From: a virus
IMG/VR virus record: IMGVR_UViG_3300042563_002756
Length of the DNA: 64,000 bases
Direction: 5' to 3' (one strand)
Positions within the stretch are counted from its first letter, which is position 1, and every line of letters begins with the position of its first letter. This document shows positions 17,797 to 54,674 of the stretch, piece after piece. The notes below the pieces were generated by a model, which had not been told where the DNA came from, searched no databases, and saw only the letters and a list, made by a program, of their open reading frames with translations. The position numbers and the translations under genes were made by a program.

Positions 17797-18381
17797 TTAT
17801 CGACGTGAAACAATTTTGTCGCAAAGACCATAAGCCAGTGCTTCATCTGCGCTCATAAATGTATCTCGATCCATATCACGCTCAAAATCGGGATAGCTTT
17901 TACCGGCGGTATTGTGTTCAACATACAATTTGGTTAACATGGTTTTCATTTGTGTGATTTCTTTGTATTGAATTTCAATATCACTCTGCATACCACGAGC
18001 ACCACCACTAGGCTGATGAATCATGTGACGAGCATGTGGCAACATAAAACGTTTACCTGGATGTCCTGCCTGTGCTAGGAAACTACCCATTGAACAAGCC
18101 TGACCCATAACATAGGTACACACATTTGGTTTGACAAACTGCATAACGTCATAGATAGCCATGCCACTTGTAATTACACCGCCTGGACTATTAATGTAAA
18201 AGTGAATATCCTTTTCGCTGTCTGAACTTTCCAAATGTAGGATCTGTGCTACAATTAGATTACTACTGTGATCATCGACTGGTCCATTCAAGAACACAAT
18301 ACGCTCATTAAGCAAGCGGCTAAAAATATCAAAGGCTCTTTCGCCTTGTCCGGTCTTCTCGACCACCATTGGTACTAACAT
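17797..18381 (-). CDS. clpP: ATP-dependent Clp protease proteolytic subunit ClpP
   Basis: INSPGG, catalytic Ser in GQACSMGS, His in MIHQP; full-length similarity to ClpP. Confidence 0.9.
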
Positions 18382-18806
18382 TATTTGTATGCCTTATCAA
18401 GTGTTGTATTAGTCAGGCCAGCAATGACCTGGAAATTGTCCCACGCTTTTTTCACTGCGGGATTGCGATCTAGTTCTTCACTAGGTAAAACTGTTTCGAG
18501 CCATATTTCTGATCGACGAGCAGGATGTCTGCCAAACTTGCGAGGTTGGTGCAGTTTTCCATCTTCCCACAACATGATGCTGACACTACGGAACTTGTCC
18601 TCGTCGTCTTTATTGTTAAAGTCATAGTGACTCCACTCGGCATGGCTTGCACCTCCGAGGCAGTAGCCTTCCCAGATACCTGACCATTGTAGGTCATCTC
18701 GCGGGTCAAAATCTGTACGAGTAATTACTACCAGTACATCTTCTATGTCTACACGTTCTTCAACAATATCAAGAACGCAACGACTGTAACTTAGACCGAC
18801 TTTCAT
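18381..18806 (-). CDS. hypothetical protein (141 aa)
   Basis: ORF coupled to clpP. Confidence 0.45.
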
Positions 18807-19012
18807 TCTTTAACTCCGAAATATTGTTTCATGTACCACCCTACAGATACACTAGGATCGTATTGCTCGTATCCCTGTTCTTTCAATTCACCAATCTGAG
18901 CACATTTGCAAATAATCAATTCGGCAAACTTTTCGGCGTGTTCGATGCCCATCCATTTACCGCTCGTATCAGTTCCAGCCTGTTTCATAAGTGTTTCAAT
19001 TTGTTCTCTCAT
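18803..19012 (-). CDS. small protein, member of KFAELI-RKC ... FGV paralog family
   Basis: EKFAELIICKCAQ ... YFGVKE; paralogs at 58665..58883 and 58880..59113. Confidence 0.5.
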   Translation of the reverse strand: MREQIETLMKQAGTDTSGKWMGIEHAEKFAELIICKCAQIGELKEQGYEQYDPSVSVGWYMKQYFGVKE

Positions 19013-19434
19013 TCTTTAAATCTTTCTGCATAACGGGCATCTGATTCTGCCCTGTGTGTAGGACACAATGTTTTAATCCAACCTTTACCACCTGCTGTGC
19101 CAGGAGCACCGCAAGTTTCACAACTCTTGTCAGCCCATGCTTCTGCCATACGTACCATACCACTAATTTGATCGTCGCCACCTTGATAGTAGAACCGCAA
19201 TCCGCCAAACTTTTCTTTGATCTGTTCTACTACTACCTGTTCAATAACAGGGCGAGTTTCGCGGTTCTTATTCCACCAGTCAGTGTGGCTTTGGATATTG
19301 GCACATAGGCTTTCGATAATAGGCCACCATCCTTCACCTACAGCAAACCCACCGTAGGATTGTGAGAACATCTTTGGATACTTCTCTTCCATGCTTTTGG
19401 CAAATGCTTCGTACTTGTCTATATCACGATTCAT
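19009..19434 (-). CDS. hypothetical protein with C-terminal Cys/His cluster (141 aa)
   Basis: CETCGAPGTAGGKGWIKTLCPTH. Confidence 0.45.
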   Translation of the reverse strand: MNRDIDKYEAFAKSMEEKYPKMFSQSYGGFAVGEGWWPIIESLCANIQSHTDWWNKNRETRPVIEQVVVEQIKEKFGGLRFYYQGGDDQISGMVRMAEAWADKSCETCGAPGTAGGKGWIKTLCPTHRAESDARYAERFKE

Positions 19435-19669
19435 TTTCTTTATCCTGTTCGTAGGCTTTTACCATTCGATATAACGGTTCCATGCGTTCAGAAAATACAT
19501 CGGGGCAATTTTCAGCAGCTCGTTTCATATCCCACGCACTGGGATAATGTCTAAGACAATACCTAGCATTATCCTTAATGGCTTTAGGAACTCGAGGAGT
19601 ATTAAGAATTTCTACTAAAAACTCTTGAGTCCTTACTACTGCTCGATATCTTTCATCAGGTAATGTCAC
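19424..19669 (-). CDS. hypothetical protein (81 aa)
   Basis: ORF. Confidence 0.4.
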   Translation of the reverse strand: MTLPDERYRAVVRTQEFLVEILNTPRVPKAIKDNARYCLRHYPSAWDMKRAAENCPDVFSERMEPLYRMVKAYEQDKENES

Positions 19670-20219
19670 GACTGGCCTTCCATTGATCGGCCTTGTCCTT
19701 CATACCTTCTGGGTCACGCTTGTAGTCTTCAAGCACTGCTCGAAGAGCTTCTTCTATGAACTGGTTAAATGTCATATCACGTTCGTGTGCTAGCTTCATA
19801 TATTTTAACAGCTCTTCGTCTGTAAAGTCTACAGGAACACTAACACGAGTATCATAATCCTCGCCTGCGGCAATGGCCAGAGCCTTTTGCATAAAGTCGT
19901 CATCGGCCTCGAGATCTACATAGTTGACATCTTCCCAGGCCTCATCCGGCACCCTGCGATTAGCAGTTTCTTTTGCATGAGCCGAGGCATAGTCGGAATT
20001 GATCATACGGTAGGCTCGACCGTTACGGAAGTCGTGTGCCTCTACTTGATAAACTTCTTGAGTCTTAGTATCAAAGGTGATAGTAAAACTATGACCCTCT
20101 TGGTCACCATTCCAACTGTCGAGTTGATACACGTCATCTCCAAAACACCTCCACCCATAGGTGCTACCTTCGGTAATACGGTAATCGACAAGTTCCATCC
20201 ATTCTTTAACTGTTAGCAT
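19656..20219 (-). CDS. hypothetical protein (187 aa)
   Basis: ORF. Confidence 0.45.
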   Translation of the reverse strand: MLTVKEWMELVDYRITEGSTYGWRCFGDDVYQLDSWNGDQEGHSFTITFDTKTQEVYQVEAHDFRNGRAYRMINSDYASAHAKETANRRVPDEAWEDVNYVDLEADDDFMQKALAIAAGEDYDTRVSVPVDFTDEELLKYMKLAHERDMTFNQFIEEALRAVLEDYKRDPEGMKDKADQWKASRDIT

Positions 20220-20676
20220 TTTGCGGTTCCTTAGTTAGTTCGCACATTAAAATAAAATGTTCGTAGGCTTTACGAACTGCTTCATTAGAGTATAGCATCT
20301 TTGCTTCTTCTTGTAAAGCCTTTACACCAGCTTCGGCAATTTCTCTGGCACTGGGGATTTCCACATAGTAGCGGTCGTCACCGAATGCCTTGGCCATTGC
20401 TTCCCAAGCCTTCTTCTGCTTTTCAGTAATGGGCCTATTGTGTGGGCGCATCTCGCTAGCCTGCACCACTGCCTTACTAATAGCATCTTCAGCCACTCGG
20501 CTGGCCGCAATCAGCCCTGCATAATCCGGGTTGATATTAAAGCGGCGACTAGTGCCCCCAGGATAACACATAACCAAATGAGTACCCTTCGTATAACTAT
20601 CCATAAAATCGCTGTCGTACTCGGCGACAGGAACATATCTGCGGCCCTTTTTCTCATAGTATATCTTCTTGGTCAT
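20206..20676 (-). CDS. hypothetical protein (start chosen at internal Met to limit overlap; ORF open to 20817)
   Basis: ORF; 20654..20968 occupies the upstream part in another frame. Confidence 0.35.
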   Translation of the reverse strand: MTKKIYYEKKGRRYVPVAEYDSDFMDSYTKGTHLVMCYPGGTSRRFNINPDYAGLIAASRVAEDAISKAVVQASEMRPHNRPITEKQKKAWEAMAKAFGDDRYYVEIPSAREIAEAGVKALQEEAKMLYSNEAVRKAYEHFILMCELTKEPQNANS

Positions 20677-23520: not shown

Positions 23521-23668
23521 TATTTTCTTTCGGAGTTAAGGGTCGATTGTTACAATAAAAACATTCACGGTCGTTACAAATATCTTCTAACCATTCATTG
23601 CAGGTTTCGCAATAGTGAGCATCATACTCTTTCGAGTACGATTTTATGCAATCAAGTCCACAGGCCAT
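23513..23668 (-). CDS. small Cys-rich zinc-ribbon-like ORF (51 aa)
   Basis: MACGLDCIKSYSKEYDAHYCETCNEWLEDICNDRECFYCNN...; overlap-coupled to downstream gene. Confidence 0.3.
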   Translation of the reverse strand: MACGLDCIKSYSKEYDAHYCETCNEWLEDICNDRECFYCNNRPLTPKENND

Positions 23669-24524
23669 GACGCACCTTGATAAGACGGATCATCATTTCT
23701 TCATCTTCGGCTTCGTATGCCTGCTCAATTTCGTGAGTCTTCATAAGAGCAGCATCGCCTAAGGCACGAGTTTCTGGATTAGCACTTTCTTTCATAAAGC
23801 TAAGTCCAGTCTCGCCGTGTTCTTTGCGCTTGAGTTCACAGTACTCACTCCACCCGCCGGCATCGTGTGCGTCAGGACGGTTTGGATAAACATCTTTCCA
23901 CCAACGATATAGGTCAAGAACTTCCTGTGCCTTAACAGCCTGCGGAGTTGGCTTACCAATATTTGGATCACCTTCGGCCCAGCCACTATCTGTATCGTGG
24001 CGGAGACTTCGTTGCCAATCCAGATTGTCGAGTCCAGCTTGTGGACAACGCCAGGTTCTCCAACGGAACCAACCAGTTGCCCAGAATGGGGGATTATACT
24101 TAACACTGTCTGCCTTATCTGCCCAAGCAATTTGCCACCAAGCTAATTCGACTTCAACAAAGTCGACCAGCTCATTAAAAAGACAAGGAAGGAAACGATT
24201 ACCAACATCACACCACTGACCGGGTTTAATGTCTTTAGGGTGTGCAGTGAGACTATGAGTACGAGTAACCCACCGGTTATTAACATAATACTTGATATCA
24301 TAAATCTTCCTAACGGGCCAAGTGACAAAGTCTTGGAGGTGGCCGAGTGCTTCTTCCGCTAGCCAGTAACGGAAATTGTGTTTCATTTGAGCCGCAGTTG
24401 TCCAGTCGTCCCATTGTTCAGCTGTACCGGCACTAAGTTTCTTAGTACCACGAAGCCAATCTGCAAAAGGACTGCAACTCCAATATTTCGAGTGTTGTGC
24501 CATTTTAGTCTTTCTTTTCGCCAA
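23652..24524 (-). CDS. hypothetical Trp-rich protein (290 aa)
   Basis: ORF. Confidence 0.5.
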   Translation of the reverse strand: MAKRKTKMAQHSKYWSCSPFADWLRGTKKLSAGTAEQWDDWTTAAQMKHNFRYWLAEEALGHLQDFVTWPVRKIYDIKYYVNNRWVTRTHSLTAHPKDIKPGQWCDVGNRFLPCLFNELVDFVEVELAWWQIAWADKADSVKYNPPFWATGWFRWRTWRCPQAGLDNLDWQRSLRHDTDSGWAEGDPNIGKPTPQAVKAQEVLDLYRWWKDVYPNRPDAHDAGGWSEYCELKRKEHGETGLSFMKESANPETRALGDAALMKTHEIEQAYEAEDEEMMIRLIKVRHGLWT

Positions 24525-25191
24525 ACAGTTGTAGTAGGCTTAGGAACAAGTTAATAAAATTCAAATACAAGCTCAGTGCTCCGCGAATTTCGGCAACACC
24601 ATCATTTTCCATTGATACCTCTTCACGAATACGCTGTGTGTCGTAGGCAGTTAATCCAAGGAACACTAGAATAGCAATGGCCGAAATGACCATTTGAAAT
24701 ACTGTGCTACCAACAAAAATATTGATAACGCTGGCAATAATAATGGCAATCAATCCAATTAACAATAGTGATCCAAATCCACTAAGATCCTTTTTAGTAA
24801 AGTACCCGTATCCACTCATAACACCAAATAGGATCGCACCTCCCATAAAGGCCGATACAATACTGCCCATGTTGTACACCACAAAAATTGTAGCAAAACT
24901 AAGCCCCATGAGTGCTGAAAATATATACAAAAATATCTGTGAGCCCGTTTTACTAAACTTTTCACTGGCTACACTAAATGCCAAAATCAGTAAAAGAGGT
25001 GCAAAAATTACTATCCATTTCATAATACCAGTGAAGAAAAAGGCCATCAATGCTGCATTAGCACTGACCTGATAGCTAGTAAACATTGAAATCAATACCG
25101 CAATTGCCATGTGCCCATAGACCCGACCCATTGCAGAATTGATCTGCTCTGCGTTTCTATAGACACTATTTTCATAAGTTGTCGAATACAT
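24505..25191 (-). CDS. Bax inhibitor-1/YccA-family multipass membrane protein
   Basis: ~7 hydrophobic segments; C-terminal GALSLYLNFINLFLSLLQLFG resembles YccA/BI-1 signature end. Confidence 0.7.
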   Translation of the reverse strand: MYSTTYENSVYRNAEQINSAMGRVYGHMAIAVLISMFTSYQVSANAALMAFFFTGIMKWIVIFAPLLLILAFSVASEKFSKTGSQIFLYIFSALMGLSFATIFVVYNMGSIVSAFMGGAILFGVMSGYGYFTKKDLSGFGSLLLIGLIAIIIASVINIFVGSTVFQMVISAIAILVFLGLTAYDTQRIREEVSMENDGVAEIRGALSLYLNFINLFLSLLQLFGEKKD

Positions 25192-25445: not shown

Positions 25446-25476
25446 ACGACTATTATATAGTAGATTGTACCAAAAG

Positions 25477-25848
25477 TCAATTGGTTTTGGTAATAAACGG
25501 AGTTAATTCTGGAGGCGTCCAGCCCAAAGGTTTAAGCACTTTTCCATCCTCGCGCTTACGCACCTTGCCTGTTTCTTTGTCAATTTTGGCAAAATTAGTT
25601 CTCATGACTTCTTTCCATGCACCCTCTGCATCTGCGCCCATGCTGTGTAATGCTCCTATTGTAACAACTAAAATATCGACTAGTGCATCGACGGTTTCGA
25701 CTTTATCGTGTTGGCCTACAGCTTCGCCTAATTCTCTACACTCTTCTTCTATTAGCGTCATGTAAAGGTTAAATTGATCTTCGTTAAAGTTATCAACGGT
25801 CTGGTCGCAGGCTCGCATAAACTTTTCCATATCTCTAAAAACATTCAT
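25477..25848 (-). CDS. mazG: MazG-like nucleoside triphosphate pyrophosphohydrolase
   Basis: EExxE ... D metal-binding helices (LIEEECRELGEA ... DALVDIL). Confidence 0.65.
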   Translation of the reverse strand: MNVFRDMEKFMRACDQTVDNFNEDQFNLYMTLIEEECRELGEAVGQHDKVETVDALVDILVVTIGALHSMGADAEGAWKEVMRTNFAKIDKETGKVRKREDGKVLKPLGWTPPELTPFITKTN

Positions 25849-25905: not shown

Positions 25906-26682
25906 TTAGTTTCGTCGGAATGTGTTTGTCATATATTCCTTGTTGTAAATTAAATTTTTAATACTTTGAGATCTACTCTTAGAACTCTTTTCCCCTAACA
26001 CTGCTACTGCAAACATAGTATCATTGTGCTTGACCAACATTACTAAGCATCTACCTGCTTTGCTGGTAAAGCCAGTTTTACTAATCAACACATTATAGTT
26101 TGTAATATCAGGATTAGTGTTTCTTACCTGTAATGTTACAGTCTTGTTCCTGTTATTGTCAAACTCTACTTTCTCATTTTCAGCCGATGAAATCTGTGTG
26201 ATTAGCGTGTATCTACGCAACCACCATACAAAATTTACTAGATCATTAGCTGTACTAACATTTCCGGCGCCTATACCACTAGCATCTTCAATACGAGTAT
26301 TTTTTAGACCGATGTCGCTTATATGTTCATTGACATAGTTTATAAAGGCAGCGTAGCCACCAGGATGAGCATGTGCTAAACTGTCAGCGGCCCGATTATC
26401 GCTGGCGATCAGCATGGCCTTGATAAGTTCTATTCGGAGAACCTTGGTCTTATTTGGAAATCGTCCTGTTGTAGATCCTTTGACAACGATTGATTCGTTG
26501 AGATCAACTCCACTGTCAATTACTGCCATTGCTGTAAATAGTTTAGTAACACTGGCAATTGGTACTACTTGATCTTCTCTAACCGCAGCCTCCATTACTG
26601 CATCGGTAAAATTATATAGTGCGGCAGTTGTGGCACCTGCGTTTAGAGAGCAGAACAGAAGAAGGATAGTTAGGATTTTCAT
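25906..26682 (-). CDS. D-alanyl-D-alanine carboxypeptidase (serine peptidase S11, PBP5-like) with signal peptide (ORF open to 26739)
   Basis: signal peptide MKILTILLLFCSLNAGA; SxxK (SVTK), SxN (SDN), KTG motifs. Confidence 0.8.
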   Translation of the reverse strand: MKILTILLLFCSLNAGATTAALYNFTDAVMEAAVREDQVVPIASVTKLFTAMAVIDSGVDLNESIVVKGSTTGRFPNKTKVLRIELIKAMLIASDNRAADSLAHAHPGGYAAFINYVNEHISDIGLKNTRIEDASGIGAGNVSTANDLVNFVWWLRRYTLITQISSAENEKVEFDNNRNKTVTLQVRNTNPDITNYNVLISKTGFTSKAGRCLVMLVKHNDTMFAVAVLGEKSSKSRSQSIKNLIYNKEYMTNTFRRN

Positions 26683-26686
26683 ACAT

Positions 26687-26980
26687 TTATTTAACTTGTC
26701 CCCAACGAAGATAAAACTCGGATAACTTCTTTGCTTCAAGTTCCGCCATAATAATATACCTATATCCCGTCCACATTGAATCCATATGTCTATGCCATTC
26801 TGGTTTATCTACAGCGTGTTTGAATACAAACTGCCCTGCTTCACTACGTTCCCAATCAAACATAGGCCCAGCAGCATATATGTCAGGATCGTCGACATCG
26901 GCAAGATTAAACTTATGCACAACAACCTTGTGAATCTTTTTCACAACATCGCCTTCTACAGTATATCTTACTGAGCCCAT
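26687..26980 (-). CDS. hypothetical protein (97 aa)
   Basis: ORF. Confidence 0.4.
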   Translation of the reverse strand: MGSVRYTVEGDVVKKIHKVVVHKFNLADVDDPDIYAAGPMFDWERSEAGQFVFKHAVDKPEWHRHMDSMWTGYRYIIMAELEAKKLSEFYLRWGQVK

Positions 26981-28668: not shown

Positions 28669-29367
28669 TTATCTAGGTGCGAACTCTTGTTGTAATTTGA
28701 TGTTATCAAAAAATTCTTTCTTTGTAGCTGGATCATCTCTAAATGATCCTTTGAGCACAGTTGTTTGAGTTAATGAACTATGCGCCATGATGCCACGATT
28801 CTCACAGCACCCGTGTACTGCTTGAATGTAGACTGCTACGTTTTCTGAGGCAGTAGCTTTACTAATTTCTCGGGCAATGTCGTTGCAAAGTTCCTCCTGG
28901 AGAGTCCCGCGACGAGCACACCACTGAGCAATACGAGTGTACTTGCTAAGACCAATAAGTTTTTCTGCGGCGATGATGCCAATGTAAGCGACACCGCTAA
29001 CGGGCTGATGATGATGACTGCACATAGAGCGCAACTCACTACGTACCACCAGCATACCTTCGTATCGGTCTTCTGAATCGTTTGGAAATGCTGTTGCGTC
29101 TGGTGCTGCTTCATATCTTCCTGCCATTATTTCATTGTAGTACATCTTGGCCAGTCTACGTGCTGTGCCTTTGCTGTTGGGGTCGGTTTCACGATCGATC
29201 AACAGTGAATCTAACACTTTTTCAAAGGCCTCTGTTGCTTCGTCAATAAGTTCAGGCATAACATTGTTGTCGACATAGTCGCTGATGTTGTCGCCTGCCC
29301 AGAAGCGTTTGTTATCTTGTTTCATTCGATCGCGGATAACTTGCGATAGATTTTTACTTGTATCCAT
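28669..29367 (-). CDS. folE: GTP cyclohydrolase I (FolE)
   Basis: CSHHHQPVSGVAYIGIIAAEKLIGLSKYTRIAQWCARRGTLQEEL and VHGCCENRG align with E. coli FolE. Confidence 0.9.
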   Translation of the reverse strand: MDTSKNLSQVIRDRMKQDNKRFWAGDNISDYVDNNVMPELIDEATEAFEKVLDSLLIDRETDPNSKGTARRLAKMYYNEIMAGRYEAAPDATAFPNDSEDRYEGMLVVRSELRSMCSHHHQPVSGVAYIGIIAAEKLIGLSKYTRIAQWCARRGTLQEELCNDIAREISKATASENVAVYIQAVHGCCENRGIMAHSSLTQTTVLKGSFRDDPATKKEFFDNIKLQQEFAPR

Positions 29368-42700: not shown

Positions 42701-42723
42701 GTATTTTCTTTTTCTACAAATAT

Positions 42724-43641: not shown

Positions 43642-43649
43642 TGAATATT

Positions 43650-45128: not shown

Positions 45129-45898
45129 GTTTTGATTACCTTAATAATTAGTCCAGCAATATCAAGTTCCCACCATTTCTTTTTGAACATATAGTCTTTA
45201 GGGTATCGATGATGATTATTGTGCCACGATTCCCCCCAACTAGGAATAGCCCATATCCAGTTGTTTGTGCTTTGATCGTTTATATTATAACTACGATATC
45301 CACCTAACCAATCAGGTTTATGACCTACGTAATTAACTACATTACTCATAATTCCAGTAATCAGCGACGGTGCCCAAAGTAAAAATATCATTAAATAAAA
45401 TCCACCAATCATAAACAATATCATGCTATACACAGCAATAATTGCAAAATAATAACGGTGTAAAAACTGTTGAAATTTATCCGTTACTATATTTCTCATA
45501 CGCCATTTAGTATTACTATCAATTTCATTTACGTAATCAAGTGTAAAGATTTTCAAGCCTTTATATAATGGACTGTGAGGATCACTTGGTTTGTCACTTT
45601 TTAAGTGATGATTAATATGAATAGCGACCCATGCTAATGGACTTCCTGTTCCTGCAAAACAGCCCATCACTGATAAAATTTTAGTTAATAAAGGATATGT
45701 AGTATAGCTATTATGAGTAAGGCTTCTATGGTATGTGACGACAATACCCAAACAACCGTATAAAAAATATCCTAACAATATAAGCAATACAGCGTTAGTC
45801 GTTAGACCATACCAAGTTATTCCAGAAATGGTACCTAGTAATGATAAAATCATGAATAGTTGGGAACCGCGTGTGCTAGATGATAGATATGTTGTCAT
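45125..45898 (-). CDS. acyl-CoA/acyl-lipid Delta9 fatty-acid desaturase-family membrane protein, paralog 1
   Basis: His boxes HRSLTH, HINHH...DPH, HNNHH with SCD-like spacing; multiple TM segments. Confidence 0.75.
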   Translation of the reverse strand: MTTYLSSSTRGSQLFMILSLLGTISGITWYGLTTNAVLLILLGYFLYGCLGIVVTYHRSLTHNSYTTYPLLTKILSVMGCFAGTGSPLAWVAIHINHHLKSDKPSDPHSPLYKGLKIFTLDYVNEIDSNTKWRMRNIVTDKFQQFLHRYYFAIIAVYSMILFMIGGFYLMIFLLWAPSLITGIMSNVVNYVGHKPDWLGGYRSYNINDQSTNNWIWAIPSWGESWHNNHHRYPKDYMFKKKWWELDIAGLIIKVIKT

Positions 45899-45928
45899 AA
45901 AGTTATGTAACTTATTATTTTAAGTTAT

Positions 45929-46522
45929 TTAATCTTGTTGTAGCGTACTCCAGGCATAATTGTAATATTTTAAATAGCTACGGTTAATCAAATGTTCGAA
46001 GTCATTGTTTGGTTCTCCGTATACCGCTAATAGACCCTTGCTACAATTAGGATCATATTTGGAAGAATGTTTTACTGGGCCGTCTAGATAATAAAAACTG
46101 TTAGTATCATTTGGCATCGTTAAGGTATAGGAACTAGTTTCATTTGTAAAATTCCATACAGGTTCTTGATAAGTGTTCCAGAGGAATGTTCGTATACTAG
46201 GGGTATTTCTTGTGTTATCAGAATGGGGGGATATCGTTTCTAAATTTTCTATCACTCTGATAAGTCCAATTTTAAATTTAACTGAATCTTGAATTTGTTT
46301 GCATAAGTCTATCACTACTGGATTCTGTTCAGCATATGGTGCTTGATAACTGGTAGGATGGCCACGAATTTTGTATAAGTCTAAGCCTCGCCAGTTTGAC
46401 GAAACGGTGTTGTGGTTCCTAATAGCTTTATGCATAACATCAGCAGTCTTCCAGGTACTCCACCATTCATTCCAATCATTGGGTACAATTTTAGGTATAT
46501 CTAACGGACAAACTAATATCAT
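45929..46522 (-). CDS. hypothetical protein (197 aa)
   Basis: ORF between the two desaturases. Confidence 0.4.
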   Translation of the reverse strand: MILVCPLDIPKIVPNDWNEWWSTWKTADVMHKAIRNHNTVSSNWRGLDLYKIRGHPTSYQAPYAEQNPVVIDLCKQIQDSVKFKIGLIRVIENLETISPHSDNTRNTPSIRTFLWNTYQEPVWNFTNETSSYTLTMPNDTNSFYYLDGPVKHSSKYDPNCSKGLLAVYGEPNNDFEHLINRSYLKYYNYAWSTLQQD

Positions 46523-46639
46523 TAATTATTAAACTTACTTTTTATCGATTTATAAGATTCTGTAGTTGACCCGAATGATAGCAAATATCTGACTTTGCGC
46601 CGACCTTTATTTGATACCCTATGAAATTGTTTAGTGCTA

Positions 46640-47446
46640 TCATGATTTTTTTCTAATAAAAATAATAAAATTTCCTAATGAGTCAACTTCCCACCATTTT
46701 ATTTTAGTGGTAAAATTTCCAGGATTTTTATGATGATTATTATGCCAGGCATCCCCGAGTATAAAGGGCCATAACCAGATGTTATTAGTACTAGTATCTC
46801 GAGTTTCGAAGTTTCTATGTCCGTGCATATGAGCAAAATAGTTAAAACAGTTTTGACTTAGCTGTACTAACATAACAGGTAATACCCATGTAAAATAAAT
46901 TAAATCGATATTGATAAAACTTAAAAAAACCAACCATGTAAATATTATAGCAAAATACCATTTATTAATAAAGAGATGTTCTTTGGTCATTAGCTCTTTT
47001 ACTAAAAATACTTTCATCTTACCACTATGAGTTTCGATGTGTTTAAATCCAAATAATTTAAATCCTAAGTTATGAGGACTATGCGGGTCCTCATGTTGAT
47101 CTGAGTAGGCATGATGTAATCGATGCACATATACCCAACCTAAGGGGCTTCCTCGACCAGTAAGTATTGCAATCAACGTACAGATCCATTTTAGCAGGTT
47201 ACTGTTAAATTCAAAAGATTTATGACTATAGTACCTATGCAACGTAAGACTTACACCTATAATACTATAGAGATAAAAACTTATAGTTGTTATTAGAATA
47301 TTTTGAAAAGTAAAATCAAAATAAAACAATCCAATAATTGCACATAGGCTTGTGGCTAGTTGAACTTTGGTAATTGTGGTTGCACTTGCTGAAAACATAT
47401 TGTATTTATGAACTAAATATTTTAAGGACACAAATATTCCTTGCAC
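46640..47446 (-). CDS. acyl-CoA/acyl-lipid Delta9 fatty-acid desaturase-family membrane protein, paralog 2
   Basis: HRYYSH, HRLHHAYSDQHEDPH, HNNHH His boxes. Confidence 0.75.
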   Translation of the reverse strand: MQGIFVSLKYLVHKYNMFSASATTITKVQLATSLCAIIGLFYFDFTFQNILITTISFYLYSIIGVSLTLHRYYSHKSFEFNSNLLKWICTLIAILTGRGSPLGWVYVHRLHHAYSDQHEDPHSPHNLGFKLFGFKHIETHSGKMKVFLVKELMTKEHLFINKWYFAIIFTWLVFLSFINIDLIYFTWVLPVMLVQLSQNCFNYFAHMHGHRNFETRDTSTNNIWLWPFILGDAWHNNHHKNPGNFTTKIKWWEVDSLGNFIIFIRKKS

Positions 47447-47488
47447 TTGTAGGAAGCATAAGTATAGTTATCTACTGAATTTATTCCT

Positions 47489-48094
47489 ATGAAAATTGTA
47501 CGTTACAGAGAATTGATCGACAATACTGAATTTTTTACTTTTTTAAAAACAGAGTCACTTGAAATAGATCAGCTAGCAAGCATAAATCTTTGGACAGAAG
47601 ATCAGCAATCTAACAGTCATACGCTATCTTATATTTTAACAAACACTAACCGGTTTGATGGAGTTAACGGTGACTTCTATATCCTTTATGATGGTAATAA
47701 TATAGTGGCATGTAGCGGCGTATACATAAGTGAATTTAGTAAAGATATTGTAATTGCAGGCGTGCGTACTTGGGTGAATAAAAATTACCGCCATTTAACA
47801 TTGAATAGAGACTATCTTTTAGCAGAACAAAAAAAATGGGCAATAGATAGAAATGCAAAAATAATAGCATTATCGTTTAATGAGTATAACAAAAACATTA
47901 TTCAAATTTTCAAGCGTAACCGGCTAGGAGAAAACTCAGGAAGAATTAACAGTCGGTTGCCCAAACATATTTTTTACAATGGTTTACAGGAAATTAAATT
48001 TCCGATAATAATTCAATATACTCCTCAGTGGGTAATCTACGAAAAATTAGATTCAAATTTTACATTTGACTGGACTACTATTAAATGGAAGTAA
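47489..48094 (+). CDS. hypothetical protein, possible GNAT-like fold (201 aa)
   Basis: weak acyl-CoA N-acyltransferase-like core; speculative. Confidence 0.3.
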   Translation: MKIVRYRELIDNTEFFTFLKTESLEIDQLASINLWTEDQQSNSHTLSYILTNTNRFDGVNGDFYILYDGNNIVACSGVYISEFSKDIVIAGVRTWVNKNYRHLTLNRDYLLAEQKKWAIDRNAKIIALSFNEYNKNIIQIFKRNRLGENSGRINSRLPKHIFYNGLQEIKFPIIIQYTPQWVIYEKLDSNFTFDWTTIKWK

Positions 48095-49554
48095 TATTAT
48101 TCACTGATGTTGCAGATACTATAGGTTACGGGAAATATGCCGGGACTTACAAAATAGCAACTGAAATTAGAAACTCAGGATACTCTTGTCAGGTAATAGA
48201 CTTATTCAGTTTTTATTCATATGAGCAATTAACAAATATCGTTGATAAGTTTGTTACTAACGAGACATTACTAATTGGATTTAGCTGCACACTAATGGAA
48301 AAACGTGAAGACAATAGTGTTAAAAATTTTGGAAGAGACACCGAAGAATTTGTATCTATTGTAAAGTACTCTAAATCTAAAAATTCAAAAGTCAAAGTTT
48401 GTCTCGGTGGTGCACGAATGACCTTGAATTCATATTGGTCGGGAGTTGATTATGTAGTAATAAACAAAGGTGATGTAGCTATAATAAAGTTGCTAGAGCA
48501 TCTATCTACAGGCGCTGATTTAAAAACTGTAAAGACTACTCCTTGCTATGTTATAGATGGCAGTGATTATTTTTATACTCAAGAGCAGTTTGCTACTAGT
48601 AGCATTATATATCAGCCACAGGATATTATTTTTACAGGGGAATCGTTACCTATAGAAATAGCTCGAGGTTGTATATTTCAATGTGCATTTTGCCACTTCG
48701 ATCTAATAGGAAAAAAAGTAGGCGATTGGCAAAAAGATGAACAAGTTTTGCAAGAAGAGTTGATAAGAAACTATGAACTCTTTGGAACAACTCACTATAT
48801 GTTTGCTGACGAATTGATCAATGAAAGTCTTCCTAAGATGGAAATGATCCATAGAGTGTTTACCAACTTACCTTTTAAAATTTCATACACTAGTTATGCA
48901 AGATTAGATTTGATTTGGAAGTTTCCCGAGATGCGAGAAATGCTATTAGAAAGTGGGGCAGCTAGTTTAGCATTCGGAATAGAAACTATGAATGATCGCG
49001 CTGGAAAGAAAATAGGAAAAGGTCTAGGAGAAAAGCGTATTAAAGAGACGCTAGCCTATTGTGGAGAGTTATGGAAGGGTAAGATTATTACCAGTAGCAA
49101 TTTTATTGTAGGATTACCTGGTGAAGATGAAAATAGTATATACAGGACGTTAGATTATTTGTTAAGCAATGAATGTTCTTTAGATGTATTTGGATTTCTA
49201 CCATTGTACATCAGATCAGATCATGACGGAAGAAGTACAAGCAAAATTGATCAAGACCCTAAGAAGTATGGATACTCGATTAAAATCAATCAGCCCTGGG
49301 AAAGTGATCAGATGAATTTTACAGAAGCATCTGCCCTTGTGCGTAAGATATATAATGATCCTAGACTACAACAACGTAGTAAGTTCAGTGCCGCTACCTG
49401 GATAGGTCGTATTATGAATCTAGGATATACGATTGAAGAAATATTTGAAATGATCAGTGATAAAGAAACTTCTTTTGATCAGCTCAATACACTATTAGTC
49501 AGTCGAAGTTTGCTATTGAAATCTCAATACTACAACAAACTAATGTCTCTTTAA
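48085..49554 (+). CDS. radical SAM enzyme with N-terminal B12-binding-like domain, paralog 2
   Basis: RGCIFQCAFCHF CxxxCxxC; collinear with 43650..45128. Confidence 0.7.
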   Translation: MEVILFTDVADTIGYGKYAGTYKIATEIRNSGYSCQVIDLFSFYSYEQLTNIVDKFVTNETLLIGFSCTLMEKREDNSVKNFGRDTEEFVSIVKYSKSKNSKVKVCLGGARMTLNSYWSGVDYVVINKGDVAIIKLLEHLSTGADLKTVKTTPCYVIDGSDYFYTQEQFATSSIIYQPQDIIFTGESLPIEIARGCIFQCAFCHFDLIGKKVGDWQKDEQVLQEELIRNYELFGTTHYMFADELINESLPKMEMIHRVFTNLPFKISYTSYARLDLIWKFPEMREMLLESGAASLAFGIETMNDRAGKKIGKGLGEKRIKETLAYCGELWKGKIITSSNFIVGLPGEDENSIYRTLDYLLSNECSLDVFGFLPLYIRSDHDGRSTSKIDQDPKKYGYSIKINQPWESDQMNFTEASALVRKIYNDPRLQQRSKFSAATWIGRIMNLGYTIEEIFEMISDKETSFDQLNTLLVSRSLLLKSQYYNKLMSL

Positions 49555-50057
49555 ATCTGTTCTACTGTTACTCCGGACTTTTCAAGGAATTTGACACCTG
49601 AATCATCCCTATAGTTTTCACCATAATATACACGACTAATGCCTGACTGATAAATGAGCTTGGCACAGTTGAGACAGGGCATGTGAGTAACAAATAAGTC
49701 AGCCCCAACACCACTGTTGTTAGACTTCGCCAATTTTGCAATAGCATTTGATTCTGCATGTAATACCTCAGGTTTAGTTTTTAATCCGTATCGAACATTT
49801 CGTTGAGCACCTTCGTGCCATCCTTCGTATGGATACTTGGCATCAAACTCTTCAGGGTCGAGCCAACCGCCTGCACCCGAATCCCATACTTGATCTTCGC
49901 AGTTGTTATCCCAACCTGCGGGCATGCCATTGTATCCGTAACTAATAACACTGTCATCTTTGACGATCACAGCACCTACTTGTAATCTACGAGCGTGGCT
50001 AAGTTCAGCAGCTCTTAAAGCCCAATCCATATACATGTCTATGTATTTTTCTTTCAT
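49551..50057 (-). CDS. cd: dCMP deaminase
   Basis: HAESNAI and PCLNCAK zinc-binding motifs of the cytidine/deoxycytidylate deaminase family; GC content returns to phage-like. Confidence 0.85.
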   Translation of the reverse strand: MKEKYIDMYMDWALRAAELSHARRLQVGAVIVKDDSVISYGYNGMPAGWDNNCEDQVWDSGAGGWLDPEEFDAKYPYEGWHEGAQRNVRYGLKTKPEVLHAESNAIAKLAKSNNSGVGADLFVTHMPCLNCAKLIYQSGISRVYYGENYRDDSGVKFLEKSGVTVEQI

Positions 50058-50809
50058 TGATAATCTCTGCCGTCTCTAGAGTGGTACTTTTTATCGGGAT
50101 CATAGTGGGCAAATTGATCATAATTTGGTTCGTTTGGTAACACTCTTTTACCTACGAACCACTCGCCTATGTGATTAATTAGTTTTCTTCCATAATAATT
50201 TCTAATATTCGCAGACACCATGCCGTACTGTTCGTGTAGTACTTTACCTACAAGCCCTTCATTTAAATTAAAATCGTAGAATTTTCTATAGTCCACCTTA
50301 ACCCTATCTAATGAATATAAACTTGCCATGGGACTAAAAATCAAGCTATTTTTTGTATAACGAAAATTCTTATAGATATGATCTGATCTGTCAGCAATCG
50401 GATCCGTTTCGTGACCGTACCATGCTTGTCTTGCTAACTGAACCTGTCCCAATTCTTGATCTTTTTGCAATAGCTCTATAAGGTCGGTGACTAGTACAGG
50501 TTCTAGTATTTCTACGTCATCTTCTTGGTGCCATATGTAGTCATAATCTCTTTCCTTCATTAGGTCCCAGAATTGACTCCATGTTACACTCAACCCTAGA
50601 TTTTCTGGATGCAAAATAATTTCATTATAGCCGTACAACTTAACCAGCTCTGTGATCATCAAATCGTTTCGAGTTTTAGGATAATCATCGATGAAAATTT
50701 TATGTACTTCGCATCCGTAATAATTTATATTACGCTGTGCTCTTAGTGTACGAGTCAAGTACTCTAGTCTGTTAGTTGAAAATATTACCTGACAAATTTT
50801 ATAGGTCAT
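50054..50809 (-). CDS. putative GT-A glycosyltransferase
   Basis: FIDDYP and HQEDDV DxD-like motifs. Confidence 0.45.
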   Translation of the reverse strand: MTYKICQVIFSTNRLEYLTRTLRAQRNINYYGCEVHKIFIDDYPKTRNDLMITELVKLYGYNEIILHPENLGLSVTWSQFWDLMKERDYDYIWHQEDDVEILEPVLVTDLIELLQKDQELGQVQLARQAWYGHETDPIADRSDHIYKNFRYTKNSLIFSPMASLYSLDRVKVDYRKFYDFNLNEGLVGKVLHEQYGMVSANIRNYYGRKLINHIGEWFVGKRVLPNEPNYDQFAHYDPDKKYHSRDGRDYQ

Positions 50810-51357
50810 TAGATTCTCTCAGTATTAAAGAAGAAAGTTTGGAAAAGTCTGCCAGTTTCGTTGCTGTATCCAAAATAATCTAAACTTGCGTGGTATAGAT
50901 CACCTCGATAGATTATCAGTCTGTTATACTTGTTTCCTACTCTATCAAATTGATCCCATTTGGTATAATCATAACCTTCGTGATCTTTGTTAGATCTTCT
51001 AAATTCTCCAGTTTCTTTGTGGCGGTAAAATGCAGTTCCACCTGTATGTGGAGCATCCGGAGTTAGGTAACAAACACCTGCCCACATATTATGATGGTCG
51101 GCATGTATCCATGTTCTGTCTTGAGCTGTGGCTAATTGAAAGGCTCCGGTGTAACCTTGATCTTCAAACCAGTAAGTAACCGGTCCTGCAAATGCCATCC
51201 AGTATTCGATACAGGATTTAACATCGTCCGGTAGATAAGGTTTAGTTCTCGATCCGGGATAATTTCCTTTTACCGAGAAGTCTTGAGACAATGCATAATT
51301 TCTAACAATGTCTGGGTTCTCATAAAAGTTATCGATAACTAATAATTCTAAATTCAT
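50809..51357 (-). CDS. putative Fe(II)/2OG oxygenase-like protein
   Basis: HADHH (HxD) and distal His; weak. Confidence 0.35.
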   Translation of the reverse strand: MNLELLVIDNFYENPDIVRNYALSQDFSVKGNYPGSRTKPYLPDDVKSCIEYWMAFAGPVTYWFEDQGYTGAFQLATAQDRTWIHADHHNMWAGVCYLTPDAPHTGGTAFYRHKETGEFRRSNKDHEGYDYTKWDQFDRVGNKYNRLIIYRGDLYHASLDYFGYSNETGRLFQTFFFNTERI

Positions 51358-52119
51358 TTAATACCTCATGTATGTTCCACTAACACCTTCCCAGCCATAT
51401 ATTTTCCAGTCAGTTTCTACTATGTCTTTTTCGTAAGGTCTAGTAAAGAAATATAACAAGGTTTCAAGATCATATGCTAGTCCGTTGGGATTATTTGTAA
51501 ATTCTGCAATCACTCTATAGATGTCTAGCATTTTTTCATGATACTCAGAAGTCCATCCATAAAGCACTGAGCAATATTGTCTAAGCGTGTTATCTTGCTG
51601 GGTACTTCGTCTATCTACCATTTCATAGGGCCAAGTATCCTGCCACTCAAATTTTAACGGATGTTTAAAAAACAATTTCCCTGTATTTTCATTTGTACAA
51701 TGAGTTAGGTTAAACGACCGATCAAAGAAATATCTTCCACTTAATTTAAAAAAGAAGTCATATTCTTTGAGCAAATCTTTATATCTATTAAAGAATGCAA
51801 GTTGTAATATTGTTTCACAGTGACTCTTGTGAGAGTGTGTTCTAATAATATCAAATAAGTCGGGAAATTCTTCTGCTACATTAATAAAAACAAGATTTGG
51901 TTGGTAGGCAAGTACTGCTTTGTAGTGTGCAGAATTTTTAGATGAGTCAACTAAAAATATAGTTGTTTCGTCGTCTATTATTCTATCTAAAGATGATAGA
52001 GTAAAAATAGTTTGTCTTAATCGTTCTTCATTACTGAAGATAGATCTTACATTACTGTAGGTAAGTGGATAGGTATTATCAACATCAATGACGCTGGTAA
52101 CCAGTATTGCTTTCTTCAT
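51358..52119 (-). CDS. hypothetical protein (253 aa), possible glycosyltransferase-associated
   Basis: ORF in GT operon. Confidence 0.35.
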   Translation of the reverse strand: MKKAILVTSVIDVDNTYPLTYSNVRSIFSNEERLRQTIFTLSSLDRIIDDETTIFLVDSSKNSAHYKAVLAYQPNLVFINVAEEFPDLFDIIRTHSHKSHCETILQLAFFNRYKDLLKEYDFFFKLSGRYFFDRSFNLTHCTNENTGKLFFKHPLKFEWQDTWPYEMVDRRSTQQDNTLRQYCSVLYGWTSEYHEKMLDIYRVIAEFTNNPNGLAYDLETLLYFFTRPYEKDIVETDWKIYGWEGVSGTYMRY

Positions 52120-53138
52120 GATCTATAAAAGTTGCCTGTTAATAATTTTTTAAAATATTCATCGAGTTGTTTATGTACAACTTCTTCAGAGTAGTGTTTC
52201 ATTGCCCAGTCTCGGCAAACTTTGGGGTCTATCTTGTCAATGTTATTCAATGCGTCGACAAATTCTTTAAACTCTCTACAACGGAATCCAGTTACACCTT
52301 GTACAACTGTTTCTGTAAAGCCCCCCCAGTCTGTGGTAATAGCTGGGGTGCCGGAGAAGTAGCCTTCAGCAACCATATTGCCAAAAGGTTCAACGTAGTA
52401 AGTCGGTCCTATGATCGCCTTTGCATCTCGCATTAATACTTTACGCTGTTCTGCATTTGCCACACCAAACACTTCTACATGACTAGGAATTTCAGAATAA
52501 CCCATGTCTGCTAGATCTCCGGGACCTGCTACAATCAATTTATGTCCTGTTTCTTTTGTAGCTTGTATAGCAATATTAAGACCTTTGTTTTCAATAACTC
52601 TACCAAAGTAAAGAATATAATCTTTCTTTGCCTTAGAGAATTCAAACTCGTCTGGTGAAAATGCATTTGGTATAACAGCGTCATACCAGCTAGGAGCCAT
52701 TAACATCTTTCTCTCACCGTAGAACATGTGCATTTGGGCATAGCTGACAAATACTCTATAAGGTGCGAACACTGCCTTAGTGTCGTAGCCTATGCTAGGT
52801 TCGATGATAATAAGATCGTTATTGGCTTCGGCGGCAACTTGATTTTCCCAACCATGAAAGCAAACTATAATATCTCCGGGAGATTTTCGGGATTTAATTT
52901 CACCGGCTGCTCTTATATTGTATTTGTCTATACAAGAATTTCTGTGTGGGTATATCTCATCTAAACAAATTACAGTTTCACAATCTACTTTACAGCCCAC
53001 TATACCGTAATGGATACAGTCCCATCCTAGAGGCATCATGTTGTTGATAAATTTTATTACCGCTATAGAAAAGGGATCGGTCCTGTTATTAATATGAACA
53101 GGACCGGTTGGATTGCTTAATATATGAATTGTAGGCAT
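52116..53138 (-). CDS. GT-B (GT4-like) glycosyltransferase
   Basis: EPFGNMVAE ... GTP motif region typical of GT4 retaining transferases. Confidence 0.7.
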   Translation of the reverse strand: MPTIHILSNPTGPVHINNRTDPFSIAVIKFINNMMPLGWDCIHYGIVGCKVDCETVICLDEIYPHRNSCIDKYNIRAAGEIKSRKSPGDIIVCFHGWENQVAAEANNDLIIIEPSIGYDTKAVFAPYRVFVSYAQMHMFYGERKMLMAPSWYDAVIPNAFSPDEFEFSKAKKDYILYFGRVIENKGLNIAIQATKETGHKLIVAGPGDLADMGYSEIPSHVEVFGVANAEQRKVLMRDAKAIIGPTYYVEPFGNMVAEGYFSGTPAITTDWGGFTETVVQGVTGFRCREFKEFVDALNNIDKIDPKVCRDWAMKHYSEEVVHKQLDEYFKKLLTGNFYRS

Positions 53139-53316: not shown

Positions 53317-53495
53317 TGTGTACTATTTAATCGATCAATCTCATCGGCTGCTTCTTCTAACAAATCTGCAATACGGTCTGGCGTGCCTTCCTGTACTGAT
53401 TTACGGTCTTTGATCTGTCTGCGAATCTCTGCTCGCTTGCGTAGGCGGAATATAAGACTCTGTTCACTTACTGGTAAATGACTTTCGTCTTTCAT
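53313..53495 (-). CDS. hypothetical protein (60 aa)
   Basis: ORF, ATGA-coupled. Confidence 0.35.
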   Translation of the reverse strand: MKDESHLPVSEQSLIFRLRKRAEIRRQIKDRKSVQEGTPDRIADLLEEAADEIDRLNSTQ

Positions 53496-53716
53496 TTTAT
53501 ATCAAGCCCCTGTGTTTCTGGACTATAGTCCAATGTGCCGCCGTCTTTGTCATTAGGGTAGAAGTAAGCATCCTCATCTACTATTGTAACTTCTAAATCA
53601 CCATGACGCAGGTCATAGTCCGTGAATCCACCTTTGTCGTGATATACACGGAATACATATCCGTTCAGTGTGTCCAGAATAAATCCTCGTGTGCCCACAG
53701 CGTTTTCGATTTTCAT
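53492..53716 (-). CDS. hypothetical protein (74 aa)
   Basis: ORF. Confidence 0.4.
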   Translation of the reverse strand: MKIENAVGTRGFILDTLNGYVFRVYHDKGGFTDYDLRHGDLEVTIVDEDAYFYPNDKDGGTLDYSPETQGLDIK

Positions 53717-53835
53717 TTTTCTACCACCTTATATCCTGAGTAGGGATAGTGTTCTTGCAACCATTCCAACATGCCTGGTTCATTGGGCAGTCGGATTGAA
53801 TCGTATTTGTTTGTGATATACACTATGCTTTCTCT

Positions 53836-53859
53836 GAAAAAGGGCCGTGACAGCCCTTG
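53836..53859 (-). terminator. rho-independent terminator downstream of SPFH gene
   Basis: minus-strand AAGGGC-tgtcacg-GCCCTT followed by TTTTT. Confidence 0.55.
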
Positions 53860-53876
53860 TTCTTCTTTTTGTCTAA

Positions 53877-54674
53877 TTACTTAGGCATCATCAATGCATT
53901 GAAGTTGCTTGGAACAACAATGGTCTGTACTTGTCCATTCTTGATACCTTCTGAGATATTCAACATGGCTTGTGCCTGCATGAATGCAATACTAGCACCT
54001 GAGTTATTTGCAAGTGCTGCCATACGACGGCTTTCAGCTTCGGCAGTCTTAACTTCAACTTCCTTCTGCTTGAGTTCGTTCTTACTACGAACCAATGCGT
54101 TAGCCGACTCAACAACAGTATCACTTGGCAGTACATTACGAATCATAACCTGACTGATCATAATGGAACCGTCCAACTTTTCTTCAGAAAGGTTGCGAAC
54201 AATTTCTTCCTTAATGTAGTTTTCCATGTCAGTGCGGTTGTCTGCCATATCCAATGCTTCGTACTTTCGTGCGGCTTTGTAGATAGCATTACGAGCATTC
54301 TGAACCACATAGTTGTACATCACATAAGTGTCACCTTTGAATTCAGCGTGGAACGATTTGTTCTTGGTTGAATAAAGTTCGGCAACATTCTGTGAATTGA
54401 TGTTGTAAACAACTACAGCATCAAAGTCTTTCATGGTTGAGTTGTCCTTGGCCACCGGAGTCATATTCTCCAAGACCACGTTAACATCCTTGACCGGGAA
54501 TGTAAGCACATCACCGATGAATGTCTGATTGAACGAACCAGGCAACAACTCACCTGGTTGTACCTGTTTATCAAAACCAACTCGCACACCGACCTCACCA
54601 GTCTCAATACGAGTACAAGCACTAGTTAGAGCAACTGCGGTCAAAACCAAACCAACTTTAATAAAACGCATCAT
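53877..54674 (-). CDS. SPFH/band-7 (HflC/prohibitin-like) lipoprotein
   Basis: signal peptide + lipobox-like LTSAC; PHB-domain length and coiled-coil C-terminus (AEAESRRMAALANN). Confidence 0.65.
   Translation of the reverse strand: MMRFIKVGLVLTAVALTSACTRIETGEVGVRVGFDKQVQPGELLPGSFNQTFIGDVLTFPVKDVNVVLENMTPVAKDNSTMKDFDAVVVYNINSQNVAELYSTKNKSFHAEFKGDTYVMYNYVVQNARNAIYKAARKYEALDMADNRTDMENYIKEEIVRNLSEEKLDGSIMISQVMIRNVLPSDTVVESANALVRSKNELKQKEVEVKTAEAESRRMAALANNSGASIAFMQAQAMLNISEGIKNGQVQTIVVPSNFNALMMPK

Follow-up and report, generated by a model that had tools for sequence, protein, structure and literature searches.

We analysed 64,000 nucleotides of viral DNA from the IMG/VR record IMGVR_UViG_3300042563_002756 (the window) and focused on three of its genes, which encode a protein of the BI-1 (TMBIM) family, an SPFH/Band-7 lipoprotein and the proteolytic subunit ClpP. 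A first-pass annotation, made from the letters alone, had read them as a copy of YccA, an HflC-like lipoprotein and a full ClpP, which together could retune host proteostasis through the membrane protease FtsH. All three open reading frames (ORFs) are present on the minus strand, and the profile searches place each of them above the cut-off of its Pfam family (Bax1-I, Band_7 and CLP_protease, respectively). The reading we favour, at a probability of roughly 55%, is that the three genes are separable modules which would each serve host maintenance, within a large set of cellular-type phage genes that keep the host working. The three genes and the other features are listed in Table 1.

Table 1. 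Features of the window and of the overlapping contig L416. Coordinates are those of the window unless L416 is named.
Feature	Coordinates	Strand	Remarks
BI-1 (TMBIM) protein, YbhL/YetJ-like, predicted seven-helix inner-membrane protein	24505..25191	-	228 aa; Pfam Bax1-I
SPFH/Band-7 lipoprotein (predicted)	53877..54674	-	265 aa; Pfam Band_7, phrog_200
ClpP proteolytic subunit, cellular type	17797..18381	-	194 aa; Pfam, NCBIfam
tm58	54770..54946	-	58 aa; two predicted transmembrane helices; directly upstream of SPFH
PRA-PH/MazG-like pyrophosphohydrolase	25477..25848	-	Pfam PRA-PH, E = 3.6e-11; upstream flank of the BI-1 slot
p290	23652..24524	-	290 aa, Trp-rich; overlaps the 3' end/stop codon of BI-1; downstream flank of the slot
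DnaJ, peptide deformylase and ClpA-type unfoldase, in a row	L416 16135..19752		3.0-6.6 kb beyond window position 1
GroES-like co-chaperonin	4896..5276	-	126 aa; Pfam Cpn10, 30.1 bits (gathering cut-off 21.1); weak NCBIfam GroES matches
rIIA	56009..58186	-	PHROG 612/609 assignment together with rIIB
rIIB	54952..56031	-	PHROG 612/609 assignment together with rIIA; tm58-SPFH pair directly downstream
Sigma-70-like promoter match, TTGACA-17-TATAAT, 12/12	58225..58253	-	upstream of rIIA; consensus match only
Sigma-70-like promoter match, TTGACT-17-TATAAT, 11/12	25452..25480	-	in the gap before the p79-BI-1-p290 unit; consensus match only

The BI-1 protein resembles YbhL and YetJ

The BI-1 protein matches Pfam Bax1-I with 181.5 bits (cut-off 34.1) over positions 2-207 of the 207 in the profile, and the C-terminal motif GALSLYLNFINLFLSLLQLFG was confirmed. 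The family and the seven-helix fold proposed in the first-pass annotation therefore stand, but the orthology to YccA does not. Against the NCBIfam YccA equivalog NF007765 the protein reaches 45.5 bits, where the cut-off is 353, and blastp prefers E. coli YbhL (155 bits, 38% identity over the full length) to YccA (60 bits). The motifs TAYDTQ and LYL(D/N)FINLF are common to the phage protein, YbhL and B. subtilis YetJ (BsYetJ), whereas E. coli YccA lacks the DTQ of TAYDTQ and the LYLD of LYLDFINLF, both of which the phage protein keeps. It is thus a YbhL/YetJ-like protein and not a YccA orthologue.

The closest solved relative, BsYetJ (E = 1e-10), is a pH-gated Ca2+-leak channel. An AlphaFold2 (AF2) model of the phage protein shows seven long helices (predicted local distance difference test score (pLDDT) 80, predicted template modelling score (pTM) 0.78), and its significant Foldseek matches are YetJ entries only (TM-score 0.74-0.82). 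The di-aspartyl pH sensor of YetJ is incomplete in this protein, which has one of the two aspartates: D184, the counterpart of YetJ D171, is invariant in 178 sequences of the phage clade, and position 211, the counterpart of YetJ D195, is Asn in the window's protein as in 53 of these 178 sequences and Asp in the other 125.

BI-1 relatives that are 62-93% identical were found on at least 222 IMG/VR contigs. A tblastn search of 50,697 phage records, in contrast, returned 8 matches, all of them short, unannotated and dubious fragments, and BI-1 is essentially absent from cultured phages. The datasets behind the eight fragments also carry cellular-type ClpP. Among the matches listed from GTDB species genomes, the nearest cellular homologues are mostly from Alphaproteobacteria and share 39-47% identity. 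An exhaustive HMMER search of 1.84 billion cluster representatives found no full-length relative above 48% identity outside the phage clade's own representative; thus, unlike the cellular E. coli YbhL and B. subtilis YetJ, the phage clade has no cellular member above this value. With the 62-93% identity inside the clade and the conserved motifs, this excludes recent capture from a host, or contamination, as the origin of the gene. Judged by these comparisons, BI-1 is an old phage-specific gene family.

Within this family's genomes BI-1 is an accessory gene in a fixed slot. In close relatives, defined by a ClpP that is at least 82% identical, BI-1 either lies between the PRA-PH/MazG-like gene and p290 or these two genes abut with a gap of 5-150 bp; about half of these ClpP-bearing relatives lack BI-1 in the slot. 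The PRA-PH gene adjoins BI-1 in 24 of 87 sources and abuts p290 directly where BI-1 is missing. The commonest neighbour of BI-1 is p290 (39/87 sources), which persists in relatives without BI-1 and has no Pfam, PHROG or PADLOC match.

We found no report of a phage TMBIM gene in the searchable literature. The only TMBIM entry in a 2018 survey of viral transport proteins is poxvirus GAAP, and a jumbo-phage review mentions neither BI-1 nor SPFH nor FtsH. As far as could be found, BI-1 is therefore an undescribed phage gene family. Its spread through an uncultured phage clade would place phages beside the eukaryotic viruses as carriers of TMBIM cell-survival proteins.

The SPFH lipoprotein is paired with a small membrane protein

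The SPFH protein scores 60.3 bits against Pfam Band_7 (cut-off 23.6) and matches phrog_200, labelled 'lipoprotein', with E = 5e-31. It starts with the signal peptide MMRFIKVGLVLTAVALTSA-C20, whose lipobox is LTSA-C20. A lipobox is found in 233 of 240 members of the family and in 8 of 9 diverse phage homologues, and 219 of the family members have Thr at position +2. The protein is a predicted bacterial lipoprotein; according to the E. coli sorting rule, Thr at +2 directs a lipoprotein to the outer membrane.

The first-pass annotation was right about the SPFH fold and the lipobox. What did not hold is the specific link to HflC, since the protein has no HflC signature, no transmembrane anchor and no HflK-like paralogue. 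Blastp gave no match to HflK or HflC, NCBIfam gave no match either, and hhalign assigned a probability of 4% to E. coli HflC and 27% to HflK. Searches against solved structures produced nothing meaningful with phmmer, and a profile search of the PDB gave weak matches only (QmcA E = 0.012, stomatin 0.1, HflC 0.14). In the AF2 model (pLDDT 77, core about 90) an anchor is followed by the SPFH core, a long coiled-coil helix of 39 residues (185-223) and a C-terminal helix. Foldseek matched the model with E values of 8e-11 to 3e-7 to full-length prohibitin (8e-11, the top match), HflK/C (2e-10), stomatin, erlin and QmcA, which are roughly level. The modelled protein has the architecture of a generic cage protomer, and its likeness to HflC is at fold level only.

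The conserved partner of the SPFH protein is tm58. Of 100 loci with SPFH, 82 have a tm58 homologue 10-124 bp upstream in the same orientation, and the pairing is kept in at least four contexts, namely after rIIB, after DNA ligase, before ClpP and before BI-1. The order rIIA-rIIB-SPFH is kept in at least 10 loci, among which rIIA is 54-100% identical. Neither tm58 nor the other small ORFs that flank SPFH match NfeD or any significant Pfam family, and the same holds for Pfam families in the case of a 60-aa ORF between SPFH and ClpP in one relative (L002); an NfeD-type partner for SPFH was thus rejected among the flanking small ORFs. SPFH/NfeD operons of the QmcA-YbbJ type nevertheless offer a parallel, in that their small membrane partner is echoed by the upstream tm58. 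They differ in that tm58 lacks the NfeD/OB domain and that the phage protein is anchored by a lipid, not by a transmembrane helix.

The SPFH family extends well beyond this clade. It is represented in 193 phage records, which lack BI-1 and include Ackermannviridae, Acinetobacter phages and cyanophages, and the phrog_200 lipoproteins of the Ackermannviridae and of Acinetobacter and cyanobacterial myoviruses belong to the same family and conserve the lipobox. Small transmembrane ORFs equivalent to tm58 precede SPFH in the phages BUCT-ZZ01, S-CREM1 and AbTZA1, and a pair of the tm58-SPFH type is also found in Kyanoviridae and Straboviridae. None of the SPFH-bearing phage families examined beyond this clade has ClpP or BI-1 nearby. 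A chromosomal SPFH homologue lies amid housekeeping and envelope genes in the freshwater bacterium Parvibium lacunae. There, an unannotated ORF of 60 aa with two transmembrane helices is located 13 bp upstream of the SPFH homologue (QPGB01000006.1; L421 7805..7987), and it is probably a gene that was missed by the bacterial annotation. The phage SPFH family itself was already known; what is new here is its conserved small membrane partner and the occurrence in bacteria, which make tm58 and the SPFH lipoprotein a two-gene unit common to several families of large myoviruses and to bacteria.

In the SPFH loci L258-L264 the SPFH protein is 92-97% identical to that of the window and stands in the different context ligase-tm58-SPFH-p510-ClpX, and the tm58 of these loci is only 41-52% identical to the window's. 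The contrast suggests either that the two genes have been recombined or that tm58 evolves very fast.

A cellular-type ClpP is encoded near a ClpA-type unfoldase

The match of the phage ClpP to Pfam CLP_protease is strong (E = 7.9e-76, 254 bits, cut-off 20.2). It also passes the cut-off of 249 of the NCBIfam ClpP subfamily NF001368 with 290.3 bits, and stays with 270.7 bits under the 308.6 cut-off of the strict equivalog TIGR00493. The alignment with E. coli ClpP (1TYF) runs end to end (E = 1.6e-70, 58.5% identity). The phage protein has no propeptide; its first residue corresponds to the N-terminus of mature E. coli ClpP. The Ser-His-Asp triad that belongs to the ClpP assignment of the first-pass annotation is present, as Ser97, His122 and Asp173 align with E. 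coli S97, H122 and D171. The oxyanion residues G68 and M98 equal those of E. coli, and the N-terminal axial loop (residues 2-20) is nearly identical. Of the nine residues that we take from the E. coli ClpP literature to form the docking site, six are kept (Y62, F82, M92, F112, L114 and R192).

Contig L416 is 100% identical to window positions 1..13146 and runs on leftward past the end of the window. It carries DnaJ 3.0-3.8 kb beyond the left end, a peptide deformylase (Def) that passes the cut-off of TIGR00079 and, at 4.3-6.6 kb, a ClpA-type protein of 763 aa. The latter shares 44.6% identity with E. coli ClpA. Its match to TIGR02639 (876 bits) is unbroken over the full length, whereas ClpB models align to it in two separate segments, so that it has no middle domain. 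Its tripeptide VGF aligns with IGL617-619, the ClpP-docking tripeptide of E. coli ClpA; VGF is the docking variant of ClpC. Given the VGF loop in the ClpA-type protein on L416, a ClpAP protease of the phage's own is most likely. The window itself encodes a GroES-like protein; neither ClpX nor GroEL was found in it.

Genes of this kind are already known from jumbo phages. Those of the Atu_ph07, Phosso, PA5oct and Rak2-like type have been described with ClpP, ClpA, ClpX, ClpS and DnaJ (PMC6102473, PMC7824862). Their ClpP is 50-65% and their ClpA about 42% identical to the copies described here, and the combination of ClpA and ClpP also occurs in PA5oct and Atu_ph07. Unlike the phage studied here they lack BI-1, and the kinship is distant.

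The best PHROG match of ClpP is phrog_94, 'head maturation protease' (E = 5e-48), and RefSeq labels the Atu_ph07 and PA5oct homologues in the same way, but a prohead protease that stands apart from host proteostasis is highly improbable and the PHROG label unlikely to apply, given that the head-maturation model NF045542 reaches 100 bits (cut-off 120) against the 290 bits of the cellular NF001368, that the axial loop and most of the AAA+ docking-site residues are conserved, that the gene lies amid QueD, UvdE and other auxiliary genes and not in a structural module, and that a ClpA with a docking motif is encoded nearby.

Three separable modules are favoured over one system

According to the reading we favour, ClpP would be a cytoplasmic protease subunit with an intact triad that is most likely paired with the phage ClpA-type unfoldase. 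Alongside this ClpAP, the phage DnaJ, peptide deformylase and GroES-like protein would act, and the likely roles of ClpP are the degradation of host proteins and the quality control of phage proteins. BI-1 would be a YbhL/YetJ-like TMBIM channel in the host inner membrane, probably expressed early. Its function is most likely cytoprotective: it could stabilise the ion balance of the membrane and, by family precedent, occupy or inhibit the host FtsH, so that the infected cell would be kept alive through a long infection. The tm58-SPFH pair would form an independent and mobile two-gene envelope module, probably an SPFH ring or cage that faces the periplasm. We infer all of these activities, as well as the ClpA-ClpP pairing and any effect on FtsH, and for FtsH modulation the argument is one of family precedent only.

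Several observations weigh against this reading. The docking site of the phage ClpP differs from that of E. coli in three residues (Y60H, I90Y and L189V), and the proposed pairing with ClpA is read from the docking motif. We know of no demonstrated function for any bacterial YbhL-type protein or any phrog_200 SPFH lipoprotein. Moreover, the genes are tightly clustered in a number of relatives. Three of them (L002, L278 and L331) fit the order (rIIA-rIIB)-tm58-SPFH-ClpP-ligase-(PRA-PH)-BI-1-p290 into about 5 kb. BI-1 is immediately preceded by ClpP in L005/L006 and L057-L060, and by tm58-SPFH in L049. The order BI-1-p510-ClpX occurs in L022, L049, L066 and L075, and is followed by GroEL in L022 and L066. 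In L079 a GroES-like gene adjoins BI-1, with DnaJ-ClpA about 4 kb off. Among the 32 loci anchored on BI-1 that extend 8 kb or more to each side, 24 have a protease or chaperone gene within 10 kb of BI-1, as do 15 of 20 arrangement classes. Such clustering could be real functional coupling, which the controls do not separate from shared ancestry.

The controls are unrelated genes in the same region. Around BI-1, in the same 32 loci, ClpP is present in 18, compared to 19 for p290, 15 for ligase, 12 for QueD and 12 for p406. Around ClpP, QueD, UvdE and p406 are each present in 28 of 32 loci, compared to 8 for BI-1 and 1 for SPFH. Around ClpX, ligase is present in 48 of 48 loci and UvdE in 38, compared to 8 for BI-1 and 4 for SPFH; GroEL is next to ClpX in none of the 48. 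ClpP is part of a conserved auxiliary block, p406-(SPFH)-ClpP-QueD-UvdE. The loci behind these counts are not phylogenetically independent. Because co-localisation is as frequent for the control genes as for the proteostasis genes, or more so, the clustering is largely the shared synteny of an auxiliary-gene region. In the window, ClpP is 6.1 kb downstream of BI-1, and SPFH is 28.7 kb from BI-1, or 10.2 kb without a variable island. BI-1, SPFH and ClpP each also occur without the others. The three genes are not one co-inherited or specifically linked system. The proteostasis theme of the first-pass annotation is in fact broader than it had supposed, since it takes in the GroES-like protein, DnaJ, deformylase and ClpA, and ClpX and GroEL in relatives, but its unity as one system is lost.

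Two further observations concern the neighbourhoods of BI-1 and ClpX. Homologues of the window's GroES-like gene adjoin BI-1 in two relatives (L079 and L007). The p510 gene, which is not present in the window, lies directly upstream of the phage ClpX in 44 of the 48 ClpX-anchored loci (e.g., L049 11219..12751, L022 11486..13045); its product of 510-580 aa has N-terminal transmembrane helices, a coiled coil and weak DUF4407/tetraspanin matches, which suggests a membrane-associated ClpX partner.

The strongest alternative, though unlikely, is that the genes serve envelope defence and have no tie to proteolysis. The tm58-SPFH pair would then be a module for superinfection exclusion or lysis timing, and BI-1 would counter abortive-infection effectors that depolarise the membrane. 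Lipoproteins are classic exclusion factors of phages, as in the case of T5 Llp and Cor, and this counts in favour of the idea. So does the order rIIA-rIIB-tm58-SPFH, which is kept across phages whose rIIA is 54-100% identical, but the SPFH pair is not beside rII in T4-like phages, and it is also an ordinary chromosomal pair in bacteria. The presence/absence pattern of BI-1 is typical of counter-defence and moron genes, yet its recurrent neighbours are chaperone and protease genes, and none of the three proteins or of six neighbours matched PADLOC or any other defence profile. In Kuttervirus the SPFH gene adjoins a gene annotated as superinfection exclusion (PMC3220722), but this label is an annotation, and it is on the neighbouring gene. 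Finally, the virus-encoded BI-1-family channels of eukaryotic viruses, poxvirus vGAAP and US21 of human cytomegalovirus, modulate Ca2+ and block host cell death (PMC5451544, PMC10470750, PMC6163359). The parallel with the phage BI-1 is suggestive; vGAAP and US21, however, are recent captures from animal hosts, whereas the phage BI-1 clade is old and lacks a close donor.

Less probable again is the single programme of the first-pass annotation. Here BI-1 would act as a YccA-like decoy and the SPFH protein as an HflKC-like cage, which together retune the host FtsH and stabilise membrane proteins or phage regulators, with ClpP as a second proteolytic arm. Two precedents speak for it. In E. coli, YccA serves FtsH as a substrate and also inhibits it, within the HflKC complex (PMC7876416); in mitochondria, TMBIM5 binds AFG3L2, an FtsH homologue associated with the prohibitins PHB1-2, and inhibits it (PMC9379554). 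The E. coli system draws on the same two superfamilies, BI-1 and SPFH, both facing or embedded in the inner membrane, and prohibitin and HflK/C are the top structural matches of the phage SPFH model, which superposes on the E. coli HflK/C protomers with E = 2e-10. HflK/C is a heteropair anchored by transmembrane helices, whereas the phage has a single lipoprotein and the two-helix tm58. The mitochondrial m-AAA system likewise combines a BI-1-family protein, an SPFH cage, whose prohibitin is the top structural match of the phage protein, and an FtsH-type protease, but this parallel is at the family level only, and the phage BI-1 and SPFH are not co-inherited. Also in favour, the nearest cellular relatives of BI-1 among the matches listed are alphaproteobacterial, and several relatives have the genes side by side or contiguous. 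Searches of 5.3 Mb of DNA from related phages for FtsH, HflK and HflC returned only AAA-domain cross-matches to ClpX and one weak HflK-like match (L197); no phage FtsH was found, and any FtsH involved would therefore be that of the host.

These points are offset by others. BI-1 is of the YbhL type and not of the YccA type, and YbhL is not known to be linked to FtsH. For the SPFH protein, the profiles of HflC and HflK give no specific signal, and its Thr at +2 points, by the sorting rule of E. coli, to the outer membrane and thus away from FtsH. About half of the close relatives with ClpP lack BI-1, SPFH is widespread without BI-1 or ClpP, and unrelated genes co-localise at least as strongly.

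The most far-reaching version, which we consider more doubtful still, would combine these elements. In BI-1, freshwater jumbo phages would have the first phage equivalent of the TMBIM proteins by which poxviruses and herpesviruses prevent cell death; it would be a decoy and inhibitor of the host FtsH, and tm58-SPFH would form a cage like that of HflKC or prohibitin. Together with ClpAP and the chaperones, this would amount to a viral takeover of membrane and cytoplasmic quality control that keeps slow-growing hosts alive while a long infection runs its course. On the favoured reading of three separable modules, too, BI-1 and tm58-SPFH are cloneable candidates for the management of host membrane homeostasis by a phage, possibly including FtsH, in nutrient-poor hosts.

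The phage and its other genes

The window is phage DNA, with rIIA, rIIB, collagen-repeat tail fibres, QueD, UvdE and one tRNA-Gly, and one strand holds 84 of the 101 ORFs in a greedy ORF set. Two segments of the window gave no megablast match in the 50,697 phage records, which indicates that there is no close cultured relative, and rIIA shares only 28% identity with its counterpart in the PA5oct jumbo phages. Many metagenomic contigs of 0.2-0.38 Mb carry BI-1 and SPFH proteins identical to those of the window, and IMG/VR contains hundreds of relatives; the source is therefore an abundant uncultured clade of jumbo phages of the jumbo myovirus type. Its habitat is probably freshwater, as the sample identifiers suggest and from where the bacterial SPFH homologue also originates. 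To the right of the window, contig walking gave short contigs only and nothing relevant.

The promoter matches before rIIA and before the p79-BI-1-p290 unit would fit early expression. Near the BI-1 unit lies a gene for a DD-carboxypeptidase (25906..26739; Peptidase_S11, E = 2.5e-34) with a hydrophobic N-terminus, whose product is a predicted phage-encoded peptidoglycan-remodelling enzyme.

The variable island at 31272..49722 comprises 18.45 kb of low GC content (32.0%, compared to 41.3% elsewhere) with genes on mixed strands. A contig that is otherwise 98-99.7% identical (L001) has 187 bp in its place. The island encodes a TRAP-type DctP solute-binding protein, a TctC-like protein, an AMP-binding enzyme, a beta-keto-acid cleavage enzyme (BKACE) and two radical-SAM enzymes, one of them with a B12-binding domain. 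The island resembles a metabolic cassette that varies from strain to strain; its interpretation as a polysaccharide cluster was dropped.

A QueD-like PTPS (17190..17696), a GTP cyclohydrolase I (28669..29367) and a weak QueC-like ORF (42724..43641) suggest a 7-deazaguanine pathway of the queuosine type, which possibly serves DNA modification. Three regions (49551..53138, 29417..30250 and 15489..16903) code for glycosyltransferases (GT1, GT2), DUF6445, dCMP deaminase, UDP-glucose dehydrogenase, NAD-dependent epimerase and cytidylyltransferase-like genes, and this cluster points to a sugar-nucleotide or hypermodification potential. Finally, two large tail-fibre proteins are encoded at 7053..11650, which contain collagen repeats, an Mtd_N domain and a C-terminal Peptidase_S74 chaperone domain, and an internal repeat of about 165 bp with 78% identity is located at 7589..7919.

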